Below, piece by piece: positions 47,497 through 53,694 of a stretch of 64,000 nucleotides of DNA. The stretch is from contig CAZEKH010000001.1 in the NCBI GenBank assembly GCA_964512925.1, positions 200,226 through 264,225 on the forward strand, read 5' to 3'. Source of the stretch: an uncultured Candidatus Saccharibacteria bacterium (GTDB lineage: Bacteria > Patescibacteriota > Doudnabacteria > UBA920). How positions within the stretch are numbered: position 1 is the first letter of the stretch; each line of letters starts with the position of its first letter. The notes beneath the pieces are model-generated. The model was not told where the DNA came from, made no database searches, and saw nothing but the letters and a program-made list of their open reading frames with translations. The position numbers and the translations under genes were made by a program.

Positions 47497-47816
47497 AGTA
47501 AAAATCTCACTTCAGTAATATTGCGTATGACTATACTAACTCTTTTTGAGAGCGAGGGGGATGGGTAAAATATTTGACAAATACTGGAAGATAAAAAATC
47601 TAAAAAAATAAGAAAAAATTTTGTGGATAACAGAGGTAAAAAGCGACATCTTTTTAGGGTTTTTTTCGGTTTTATTGGGTTTTCCGCTTTTTTTGACTAA
47701 CACAATATGTAGTAGTAGACTAGATAGAGTGAATACTAGATGTAGTAAAAAACTGATAACTGATTACTGATAACAATCAAGTGTTATTGGTTATGAATTA
47801 TTAGTTATTTGTCCCT

Positions 47817-48263
47817 ATGAAGTGCCCAAACTGCCAAAATGAGGATACTAAGGTTTTAGACAGCCGTCCGGTGGAAGAAGGAAGCGCTATTCGGCGCAGA
47901 CGGGAGTGCGAAAAGTGCCAGTTTAGATTCAGCACCTACGAAGAAATAGAAATTTTAGATTTAAATATTGTAAAGAAAGACGGTCGTAAGGAATTGTTTA
48001 GTAAAGAAAAACTTTTAAGAGCAATTAGACTACCTTTGGACAAAAGGCCATATACTGAAGAGGCTATAAAAAAACTGCTTTCAGCGATTGAAATAGAAAT
48101 ACAAAGAAAAGCCAAAGACGGCGAGATTAAAAGCACTGAAGTGGGGGAGATAGTGATGAAGAAGCTGAAAAAGTTTGATAAGGTGGCTTATATCCGCTTT
48201 TCCGCAGTCTACCGCCAGTTCGCGGATGTGGAGGAGTTTAAGGAAGCACTAGATAAATTATAG
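47817..48263 (+). CDS. nrdR: transcriptional repressor NrdR
   Basis: MKCPNCQ…CEKCQ zinc ribbon plus ATP-cone. Confidence 0.9.
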   Translation: MKCPNCQNEDTKVLDSRPVEEGSAIRRRRECEKCQFRFSTYEEIEILDLNIVKKDGRKELFSKEKLLRAIRLPLDKRPYTEEAIKKLLSAIEIEIQRKAKDGEIKSTEVGEIVMKKLKKFDKVAYIRFSAVYRQFADVEEFKEALDKL

Positions 48264-48486
48264 CTACCAATCTACAAATTGATCCAAATCTACTCCGACG
48301 CCATAATTAAATATTAAGAGTCGGAGTCCCGACATTGCTATCGTCGGGACAAATACCTACAAATAGAAATAATAATTAAAAATAAATTAACTTTACTAAG
48401 TACGAATTTATACTAATATACCAATTTTAAAAAATAACTATTAGTATATTTGTATGAATTAGTATTTGGTAAAATAAAAAAATATT

Positions 48487-52498: not shown

Positions 52499-52912
52499 AT
52501 GCTTAAATTTTTGAATGTTAAAAAAGGTATTTATTTAGGGTTAGTAATTTTTTTAGCCGCAAGTTGTGGCGTAAAAACTAAACCCTCTACCCTTGACCCT
52601 ATACCCTCAGCCGTACAGCAAATCCAGGTGAGGCATAAAGTTGAGGGAGTGGACAGGGGTGACCAGCTGTTTAACTTTTATGAAAATGAAAACAAAACCG
52701 CTTTAGACCTTTTAAAAAGCGGGCACAATGTGGAGACAAAAAGTTTTTCCGGAGTGGGTGAGTTTGTGGAAAGTATAAACGGAGTTAAAGCGGACGGGAA
52801 AAAAGAATTTTGGGCATTTTACTTAAACGGTCAGCAAGCCCAGGTTGGGGCATCGGATTATAAGCCAAAAAATGGAGATGTGATAGAATGGAAAGTGGAG
52901 AAGATCAAGTAG
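52499..52912 (+). CDS. DUF4430-like lipoprotein (putative cobalamin-binding)
   Basis: lipobox LAASC; C-terminal …FWAFYLNGQQAQVGASDYKPKNGDVIEW… typical of DUF4430. Confidence 0.5.
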   Translation: MLKFLNVKKGIYLGLVIFLAASCGVKTKPSTLDPIPSAVQQIQVRHKVEGVDRGDQLFNFYENENKTALDLLKSGHNVETKSFSGVGEFVESINGVKADGKKEFWAFYLNGQQAQVGASDYKPKNGDVIEWKVEKIK

Positions 52913-53094
52913 TTGAACAAAGTTATACTTTTGGGTTAGGGTTTAAGTGAATAAATTAAAATAATATTTAACAGACATTGAAAATTAATCTAATTTCTAA
53001 TTGTTCTAATTGACCTAAAATTAAATTGCTTCGGATTTTTTAGAATAATTATTAATTAGTCCGCCAGATGGCGGAAATTAGAACAATTTAAAAT

Positions 53095-53694
53095 ATGGTT
53101 TACTTAATAATACTTTTAGCAGTTTTGTCCAGGTTTGTGCCGCATATGCCAAACTTTGCGCCCATAACCGCTTTGGCTATTTTTACCGCAGCTTATATGC
53201 CGTGGAAAAAAGCCGCGGGACTGACTTTGGTTGTTCGTTTGATCAGCGACATTTTTTTGGGATTTTTCTCCTGGCCGATGATGCTGGCTGTTTATGCTTC
53301 GCATCTGGCAGGAATTGTGTTTGGAGTATGGATAAAGAACTCCTCCCGGCCTCCTCTTTGCCAAAGAGGAGGAGTTAAAGAGAAGTTATATTCCCCCTCT
53401 TTACCAAAGAGGGGGTTAGGGGGAGTTAATTTTTCTAAGGTTTTTGTGTCCTCGTTAGGTTCCTCAATAATCTTTTTTTTAGTCACAAACTTTGCTTTTT
53501 TGTATTCTAACTACCCGCATACGTTAGCGGGCATACTTCAAGCTTATATAAACGGCCTGCCTTTTTTGCGCGGTACGATGTTTGGCGATTTAGTTTATTC
53601 CTTTGCTTTTTTTGGAGCGTATGCTTTGGCTTCAATGAAGTTCAAATTTGCAAATAGGACAAATCTACAAATGATTACAAATGATAAATATTAG
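53095..53694 (+). CDS. small polytopic membrane protein, possibly an ECF-type S component (speculative)
   Basis: 5-6 TM helices; two in-frame palindromic-element insertions in a loop; adjacent to the DUF4430 gene. Confidence 0.3.
   Translation: MVYLIILLAVLSRFVPHMPNFAPITALAIFTAAYMPWKKAAGLTLVVRLISDIFLGFFSWPMMLAVYASHLAGIVFGVWIKNSSRPPLCQRGGVKEKLYSPSLPKRGLGGVNFSKVFVSSLGSSIIFFLVTNFAFLYSNYPHTLAGILQAYINGLPFLRGTMFGDLVYSFAFFGAYALASMKFKFANRTNLQMITNDKY
53350..53373. repeat. Family-A-like short palindrome CCTCCTCTTTGCCAAAGAGGAGG
   Basis: in frame inside the 53095 membrane-protein CDS. Confidence 0.55.
53393..53425. repeat. Family-A-like element
   Basis: second in-frame copy inside the 53095 CDS. Confidence 0.55.

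Follow-up and report, generated by a model that had tools for sequence, protein, structure and literature searches.

In Lactobacillus delbrueckii, an auxotroph for cobalamin (vitamin B12), an adenosylcobalamin (AdoCbl)-dependent ribonucleotide reductase (RNR), a six-helix carrier of the S-component type and a cobalamin adenosyltransferase are grouped in the nrdJ-cbrS-cbrT-pduO cluster, with the energy-coupling factor (ECF) transporter ECF-CbrT (PDB 6FNP; Santos et al. 2018, PMC5997447). A second way of importing the vitamin is represented by BtuM of Thiobacillus denitrificans (PDB 6FFV), a solitary S-component-like B12 transporter of ~20 kDa that was predicted through its co-localisation with btuB and works independently of an ECF module; according to the paper on BtuM, the membrane proteins for B12 import are mostly still to be identified (PMC6072759). 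Other systems to be considered are the type II ATP-binding cassette (ABC) importer BtuFCD with its adenosyltransferase BtuR, and the vertebrate B12 carriers (TCN proteins), which bear a DUF4430 domain at their C-terminus (PMC4350170). Here, we describe six co-directional genes at positions 47690-53694 of a 64-kb stretch of a Candidatus Doudnabacteria (Patescibacteria) genome (contig CAZEKH010000001.1), for which the L. delbrueckii cluster is the closest precedent. The whole stretch is called the window below, and coordinates are window positions. The locus is, with good confidence, a vitamin-B12 (corrinoid) salvage-and-use operon of this lineage.

The list of open reading frames (ORFs), together with Pfam and NCBIfam matches (Rfam was used for riboswitches), gave the gene order nrdR, nrdJ, a small ORF of family DUF6899, a CobA/CobO/BtuR gene (cobO below), a DUF4430 lipoprotein gene and a DUF6580 membrane protein gene. 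The named genes and their order, all recovered by profile matches, are those of the initial annotation, which had been made from the sequence alone and had proposed a B12 salvage-and-activation module feeding NrdJ, with the lipoprotein and the membrane protein as its uptake part; family matches and comparative context strongly support that proposal. The product of nrdR (47817-48263, + strand) is an ATP-cone/zinc-ribbon repressor of RNR genes (TIGR00244, 175.7 bits for a cutoff of 124.65; PF22811 and PF03477). nrdJ (48487-51165, + strand) encodes an AdoCbl-dependent class II RNR (TIGR02504 NrdJ_Z, 590.5 bits for a cutoff of 399.95; PF02867, 4.5e-120) with a TSCPD domain (PF12637) and a Cys-rich tail at its C-terminus. 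Its score against the class I RNR model TIGR02506 was 309.8 bits, under the cutoff of 341.05 for that model.

The fourth gene, cobO (51702-52406, + strand), encodes an ATP:cob(I)alamin adenosyltransferase of the cobO/cobA/btuR type (PF02572, 4.5e-49, 167.4 bits for a cutoff of 25.7). Whether it has the P-loop adenosyltransferase fold was a check suggested with the initial annotation: the match spans profile positions 2-172 of 172, and the modified P-loop G-x-G-K-G-K-T-[TS] is intact as GAGKGKTT (GAGKGKTTAAMG) and kept in 18 aligned orthologues. The stricter equivalog model TIGR00708 gave 139.8 bits, under its cutoff of 167.75, and this shortfall is probably due to two insertions in the protein. 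The true start codon is probably the ATG at 51720 or at 51759. CobO is predicted to adenosylate cob(I)alamin.

The lipoprotein gene (52499-52912, + strand) belongs to DUF4430 (PF14478, 2e-19, 70.3 bits for a cutoff of 23.8). Searched against PDB sequences, its product matched the C-terminal domain of human transcobalamin-2 (5no0_A, E=4e-4) and a DUF4430 crystal structure (3u7z_A, E=6e-3). The placement in a cobalamin-linked family holds on both counts, and we predict a lipid-anchored, extracellular corrinoid binder that binds cobalamin. The lipobox reads ...VIFLAAS|C in the window protein, and LAAGC or a close variant is present in 23/24 other Doudnabacteria orthologues aligned. A single-sequence AlphaFold2 (AF2) model was unusable (predicted local distance difference test, pLDDT, 41.8). 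The likeness to transcobalamin, intrinsic factor and haptocorrin concerns their C-terminal domain, which is homologous to the window lipoprotein; unlike transcobalamin, the bacterial protein consists of the small domain and a lipid anchor only, without the large alpha-barrel domain. In a related locus (L053, 7178-9799), a gene pair under riboswitch control encodes a DUF4430 protein together with a prenyltransferase/squalene-cyclase-like protein. The two proteins could correspond to the two domains of transcobalamin, as a bacterial version divided over two genes, with the prenyltransferase-like protein supplying the other half.

The last gene (53095-53694, + strand) encodes a six-helix membrane protein of family DUF6580 (PF20221, 9.9e-39), a predicted corrinoid permease. 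A single PDB sequence was matched, 6fnp_A; this chain is CbrT, which serves ECF-CbrT of L. delbrueckii as its B12-specific S-component (PMC5997447). The single-sequence query gave E=0.31; a Doudnabacteria profile lowered the value to 7.3e-4, and a profile of the diverse family lowered it further to 6e-5. The alignment covers CbrT residues 11-124 with a shared P-N-[FV]-x-P loop after helix 1. The proposal that this membrane protein is the transporter component is supported by its one solved sequence relative being a B12 S-component. Searching S-component families gave a divided answer: among the Pfam S-component families, the window protein matched none, only PF20221 being found at E<=0.01, and the profile similarity to CbrT was confirmed. 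CbrT itself matches PF12822 (1.6e-11) and, since it is a PF12822 protein, we regard DUF6580 as a separate, distantly related and apparently uncharacterised family on the basis of the profiles. The family comprises 3029 cluster representatives at E<=1e-3, and its family-wide conserved residues are an R-x-x-P-H-x-P-N-F-x-P loop, an Asp and an Asn. The AF2 model (pLDDT 83.2) has a predicted six-helix S-component fold; in a Foldseek search of the PDB, five of its six best matches were ECF S-components (4huq_S, PanT, ThiT, BioY), with RibU eighth. These S-component matches had TM scores of 0.4-0.6, and the probability for 4huq_S was 0.96. Neither uptake protein showed homology to an unrelated family.

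The window module shares its logic with the L. delbrueckii cluster, and differs in that its carrier matches PF20221 (DUF6580) only, whereas CbrT belongs to PF12822, and in that its adenosyltransferase is of the CobA/CobO type instead of the PduO type. In addition, a transcobalamin-like lipoprotein accompanies the window carrier, nrdR heads the cluster, and no ECF module was found near the window genes. With BtuM the likeness lies in the surroundings, as DUF6580 genes outside the Candidate Phyla Radiation (CPR) adjoin TonB-dependent receptors behind B12 riboswitches. No sequence similarity to BtuM was detectable, however (no match to 6FFV at E<=10 with a single DUF6580 sequence or with either DUF6580 profile), and the cysteine that serves BtuM as a cobalt ligand has no conserved counterpart in Doudnabacteria DUF6580 proteins, among which no invariant Cys was found. 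BtuFCD with BtuR offers the same roles as those predicted here, namely an extracytoplasmic B12-binding protein, a membrane transporter and an adenosyltransferase of the CobA/BtuR type, but the binding proteins and the permeases are non-homologous and the window cluster has no ATPase gene.

The comparative evidence comes first from 48 Doudnabacteria loci, obtained from a scan of one genome per species. The order NrdR-NrdJ-CobO-DUF4430-DUF6580 is kept in nearly all of them. Because cobO and the DUF4430 and DUF6580 genes are mostly 0-50 nt apart or overlapping, the layout suggests that they form one transcription unit. Three other Patescibacteria loci, one of them from Levybacteria, carry DUF6580 and an adenosyltransferase of the PduO type (PF01923) after NrdR-NrdJ, with no CobO; in 2/3 a DUF4430 gene lies in between, and in the third it is nearby on the opposite strand, beside a prenyltransferase-like gene. 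The exchange of CobO for the non-homologous PduO type is a non-orthologous replacement inside a preserved module. In a fourth Patescibacteria locus, DUF4430-DUF6580 follows three B12-binding radical S-adenosylmethionine genes. As a separate observation, two Doudnabacteria loci carry an extra ORF of ~93 amino acids without a Pfam match between DUF4430 and DUF6580 (L006, 7714-7995; L007, 7708-7989), which the window does not have; gaps of similar size occur in L003, L019, L029, L036 and L043.

Riboswitches connect both uptake families to B12 in other lineages. AdoCbl-II riboswitches (RF01689) were found directly 5' of DUF4430-DUF6580 in two loci (L052 and L051, 58.1 and 38.2 bits), and RF01689 also lies upstream of the DUF4430 and prenyltransferase-like pair of L053. 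An Acidobacteria genome has a cobalamin riboswitch (RF00174, 83 bits) preceding a TonB-dependent receptor and DUF6580, RF00174 heads a DUF6580 operon in Kiritimatiellae, and a third riboswitch of this class is adjacent in Opitutaceae. Moreover, RF00174 was found in 15 of 40 non-CPR metagenome DUF6580 loci with >=800 nt of upstream sequence (12 upstream on the same strand, 3 divergent before an adjacent TonB receptor), mostly in company with a TonB-dependent receptor, against a rate for a random 5-10-kb stretch that we take to be well below 1%. DUF4430 and DUF6580 are associated with B12 riboswitches, B12-related enzymes and BtuB-like receptors, and in the sampled CPR, Acidobacteria and Verrucomicrobia-type lineages DUF6580 behaves as a B12-regulated membrane protein beside B12 receptors, activation or B12-dependent enzymes. 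B12 riboswitches also control bacterial cobalt transporters, which counts for a reading in which something other than B12 is imported.

Two side observations concern these loci. In 38 of 80 non-CPR loci (L058-L137; for example L066, L109, L116, L122 and L137), a PF01902 protein, which resembles diphthamide synthase and is an ATP pyrophosphatase, adjoins DUF6580, the usual order being cobalamin riboswitch, TonB receptor, PF01902 and DUF6580; we know of no role for PF01902 in B12 salvage. The Levybacteria locus (L050) has an nrdJ interrupted by an intein with a LAGLIDADG endonuclease (2179-5592), and at 7031-8231 an AdoCbl-II riboswitch follows the PduO gene and precedes a 365-aa protein without a Pfam match, which may be another B12-regulated protein.

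In the mechanism that we propose for the window, the DUF4430 lipoprotein would be tethered on the outside of the cell membrane and capture external corrinoid through its transcobalamin-like domain. The corrinoid would be handed to DUF6580, a six-helix permease of predicted S-component fold, and inside the cell the CobA/CobO-type enzyme would adenosylate cob(I)alamin to AdoCbl. NrdJ would take AdoCbl as its radical cofactor for the production of deoxyribonucleotides, and NrdR, acting on two boxes over the nrdR promoter, would tune expression to the (d)ATP pool. The B12 nature of the substrate, the passage from lipoprotein to permease and the energy source, whether the permease is solitary like BtuM or docks on an ECF module elsewhere, are steps that we infer. 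Patescibacteria are generally held to be unable to make corrin; this is knowledge about the group and not a reading of the 64-kb window.

Several points weigh against B12 salvage as the function of this locus. The roles of DUF6580 and of bacterial DUF4430 are predicted from sequence and context. The similarity to CbrT is weak and does not extend beyond residue ~110, the Foldseek matches have poor E-values (0.4-1.5), and BtuM (6FFV) did not turn up. No ECF module (EcfA, EcfA', EcfT) or ATPase partner was found in the window. The wider synteny from ftsZ to a peptidyl-prolyl isomerase (PPIase) gene extends across all 48 Doudnabacteria loci, and therefore conservation inside Doudnabacteria alone is weak, non-independent evidence. 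No riboswitch was detected before cobO-DUF4430-DUF6580 in these 48 loci with our own AdoCbl-II covariance model, nor before the module in an Rfam scan of four whole Doudnabacteria loci, so that the B12 link of this lineage rests on gene order and on the other lineages. The absence of a B12 riboswitch, a point that the initial annotation had proposed to check, was borne out in the window itself: none was found there at gathering scores, and none at E<=10 within 46200-54500. In principle, control by such a riboswitch would also be compatible with a membrane protein whose cargo is cobalt or a corrinoid precursor and not B12. In the literature, the papers naming DUF4430 appear, by their titles and abstracts, not to be bacterial functional studies, and our searches found no mention of DUF6580, PF20221, PF14478 or IPR027954. 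A search on Patescibacteria or CPR and B12 likewise found nothing relevant.

One riboswitch was recorded close to the module in a relative. In L011 (2374-3000), an RF00174 riboswitch (38 bits) lies before a unique secreted ORF of 143 aa just upstream of nrdR, not before the module. It was the only further candidate of our AdoCbl-II model in the Doudnabacteria loci, RF00174 being its Rfam class, and no counterpart was found in the 560-bp gap between orf128 and nrdR in the window.

How the permease would be energised is where the strongest competing explanation arises. DUF6580 resembles S-components in its modelled fold, its closest solved relative is a group II S-component working on a shared module (CbrT; PMC5997447), and some other DUF6580 proteins carry weak precomputed PF12822 or PF07155 matches; all of this would suit a conventional S-component, one that, like CbrT, is active only in complex with a shared ECF module (EcfA/A'/T) whose genes lie elsewhere in the genome. 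We consider this rather unlikely. The window holds no EcfT or ECF-type ATPase, its sole ABC ATPase (12876-13616) accompanying a MacB/FtsX permease. The AxxxA motif is the EcfT-docking motif of group II S-components, and the Ala-x3-Ala motif of CbrT helix 1 (ALLTA) aligns to non-alanine positions in DUF6580. In diderms, moreover, DUF6580 adjoins TonB-dependent receptors, as does BtuM, which is module-independent (PMC6072759). Because no ECF module is present in the window and DUF6580 lies beside TonB receptors in diderms like BtuM, we lean towards a solitary permease and do not regard the matter as settled.

We tentatively put forward a broader proposal, which may quite possibly hold: DUF6580 would be a widespread and so far uncharacterised family that transports B12 across the inner membrane, separate from BtuCD, CbrT and BtuM and independent of an ECF module, paired either with a DUF4430 lipoprotein (in the monoderm-like Patescibacteria) or with BtuB-type receptors (in Acidobacteria, Verrucomicrobia and relatives), and would provide Patescibacteria with the cofactor route for their only RNR. 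Many B12 auxotrophs have no known inner-membrane B12 importer, and the module ties two families of unknown function, DUF4430 and DUF6580, to B12. Three independent lines make the link, namely the homology to transcobalamin and CbrT, a gene order that survives the adenosyltransferase swap, and riboswitches in several phyla, so DUF6580 is a testable and well-supported candidate for a new B12 transporter family. The supply of DNA precursors in Patescibacteria would be pinned to a vitamin probably obtained from neighbours, and this need is relevant both to their reliance on other cells and to efforts to cultivate them.

For the regulation of the locus, the input with most support in the window is NrdR control from a promoter upstream of nrdR, as judged from its sequence elements. 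A promoter-like site (TTGACT-17-TAGACT, 47693-47721) overlaps with two NrdR-box-like 16-mers, ACACAATATGTAGTAG at 47700-47715 and ATACTAGATGTAGTAA at 47733-47748, at a spacing of 33 bp, the whole region spanning 47693-47748 on the + strand. The search pattern followed the published consensus. An NrdR regulon is marked by an NrdR protein and by tandem 16-bp boxes at an nrd promoter, spaced by about three helical turns, and both were found here. The equivalent pattern lies upstream of nrdR in 21 of 40 relatives, and NrdR boxes were found in none of the nrdR-nrdJ spacers of 38 loci (0/38).

A different regulatory proposal concerned a motif shared by the last two genes. The initial annotation had reported a near-identical repeat upstream of the lipoprotein and membrane protein genes and had taken it as a sign of their co-regulation. 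The repeat exists, and its true sites lie 14-22 nt further right than reported: the 29-mer CTAATTTCTAATTRTWCTAATTGACCTAA occurs at 52434-52462 and 52990-53018 with 27/29 bases identical (0 matches expected, from 100 shuffles), and with one 2-nt indel the similarity extends over ~36 nt, to 52434-52469 for copy A (CTAATTTCTAATTATACTAATTGACCTAATAAAATT, + strand) and 52990-53027 for copy B (CTAATTTCTAATTGTTCTAATTGACCTAAAATTAAATT, + strand). No further full copies were found in the window. Both copies are arrays of a CTAATT unit, of which eight, with a unit spacing of 7-9 nt and all intergenic, occur in the window; three of the eight are in the B12 module. Others lie between hrcA and grpE (1534-1557, inverted at 1603-1626), before the macB-like gene (15463-15492), before yqeY (30670-30693) and after orf128 (47258-47279). 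The arrays pair with inverted copies into long hairpins. Copy A forms the tail of a terminator-like GC hairpin directly 3' of cobO (CCTGCCT-accagc-AGGCAGG, 52414-52433, + strand; z = -2.4). In the spacer between DUF4430 and DUF6580, a GC hairpin (TCCGCC-agat-GGCGGA, 53060-53075) is followed by AATTAGAACAATT (53076-53088, the element spanning 53060-53088 on the + strand), a 13-mer that is the exact complement of 52999-53011 in copy B; the resulting 13-bp helix 52999-53011/53076-53088 encloses the GC hairpin, and its end lies 6 nt upstream of the start codon of DUF6580. This spacer folds at -27.9 kcal/mol with z = -3.5, and the hrcA-grpE spacer has z = -5.2.

It is improbable that the two copies are operators or promoters of a dedicated, possibly B12-responsive regulator that co-regulates both uptake genes. 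Copies A and B agree with each other (27/29, or ~33/36 with one indel) far more closely than with any other CTAATT array, they stand in identical orientation upstream of both genes, and copy A contains a 9/12 promoter-like match (TTGACC, 17 nt, AACAAT). However, CTAATT arrays also lie before grpE, the macB-like gene and yqeY and after orf128, copy B lacks a -10 element at the corresponding distance, and the start codon follows copy A after 30 nt and copy B after 68 nt. The motif is not kept at these positions in 48 relatives, whose genes there are usually contiguous, and the arrays form hairpins with inverted copies. Co-regulation through the motif is unsupported because the arrays are generic, hairpin-forming and not positionally conserved in those relatives. 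In our reading, the motif is the form that a generic, hairpin-forming intergenic repeat takes in this genome, not a B12-specific operator; it may act as a terminator, RNA-stability or translation-masking element, and the near-identity of the copies is most likely due to a recent duplication or conversion. A promoter reading of the motif was rejected, a -10-like hexamer at the right spacing being present in copy A only, as was a riboswitch-like reading of the DUF4430-DUF6580 spacer, a region not conserved in relatives.

Where relatives have larger gaps at these positions, other genome-specific 7-8-nt AT-rich repeats were found, often as inverted pairs, or small inserted ORFs, and a few relatives carry CTAATT arrays at other intergenic sites, including before nrdJ. 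Such boundary repeats are CTAATT in the window, GTAGTAAG in L006 and L008, ATAAGAT in L012, L024 and L029, CTAAATA in L016 and L038, and ATGACAAAA in L002 and L009, often placed as inverted arms that form long hairpins. Every Doudnabacteria genome seems to possess an AT-rich gene-boundary repeat (7-8 nt) of its own. Several DUF6580 proteins end in FLIPNS, which would be encoded by a CCTAATT array (3' gene end in L011 and L025), so the DUF6580 coding region probably runs into the array.

The explanation that fares worst, and which we consider more improbable still, is that DUF4430-DUF6580 imports cobalt, cobinamide or another tetrapyrrole and that the nrdJ/cobO linkage is inherited synteny: the ftsZ-to-PPIase synteny in Doudnabacteria could account for an inherited linkage, and cobinamide is also carried by ECF-CbrT (PMC5997447), but the pairing with an adenosyltransferase and NrdJ survives the CobO to PduO swap in other Patescibacteria classes, DUF4430 has a homologue in a domain whose ligand is B12 itself, the diderm partners are BtuB-like TonB receptors, and cobalt alone would be useless without a corrin pathway, which Patescibacteria presumably lack.

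The remaining gene of the locus is the small DUF6899 ORF (51301-51627, + strand; PF21840, 3.6e-22). No homologues were found in the 48 related loci, and it had no PHROG or NCBIfam match. The nrdJ-cobO gap in which it lies (51166-51701) is variable, ranging from ~50 to 3200 bp among relatives. This ORF is probably an accessory insert in the variable gap, outside the B12 pathway. GC hairpins were found 3' of nrdJ, of DUF6899 and of cobO.

Two of the B12 genes carry in-frame GC-rich palindromes. The insertion in cobO (51976-52025, + strand; peptide ...YHPLAPSYAKRGNEGEG...) is missing from most orthologues. The DUF6580 gene has a palindrome pair (53338-53439, + strand; peptide ...PPLCQRGGVKEKLYSPSLPKRGLGG...) that corresponds to the loop joining helices 4 and 5, which was modelled with low confidence (pLDDT <50 at residues 87-104). 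The palindromes in both genes, as well as one at 20132-20155, are of the type CCCCCTCTT-n4-AAGAGGGGG, and within the two coding genes they add ~20-30 residues (...PLAPSYAKRGNEGEG..., ...PPLCQRGG...SLPKRGLGG...). Different insertions occupy the DUF6580 loop in roughly half of the relatives, and the cobO orthologues likewise vary at the palindrome site. In L002 and L013, the gap between cobO and DUF4430 holds an ORF for a DUF559-like endonuclease with comparable palindromes on either side. The pattern resembles that of the Rickettsia palindromic elements and suggests a small mobile palindromic element that proteins tolerate in their surface loops.

Finally, two other regions of the window were noted. 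Behind the full MacB/FtsX permease gene (14189-15454) lie two ORFs, one of 137 aa (15572-15985) whose match to the MacB periplasmic domain is limited to positions 1-92, and one of 273 aa (16010-16831) with three hydrophobic segments; together, the ORFs at 15572-16831 may represent another permease gene that a frameshift has split. Upstream of the B12 locus, a perfect 18-bp inverted repeat (AAAAACCCAGGATCCGCA / TGCGGATCCTGGGTTTTT, 47280-47317) lies directly 3' of orf128 and of a threefold tandem repeat of TAGAGAAT, and is probably a bidirectional terminator.

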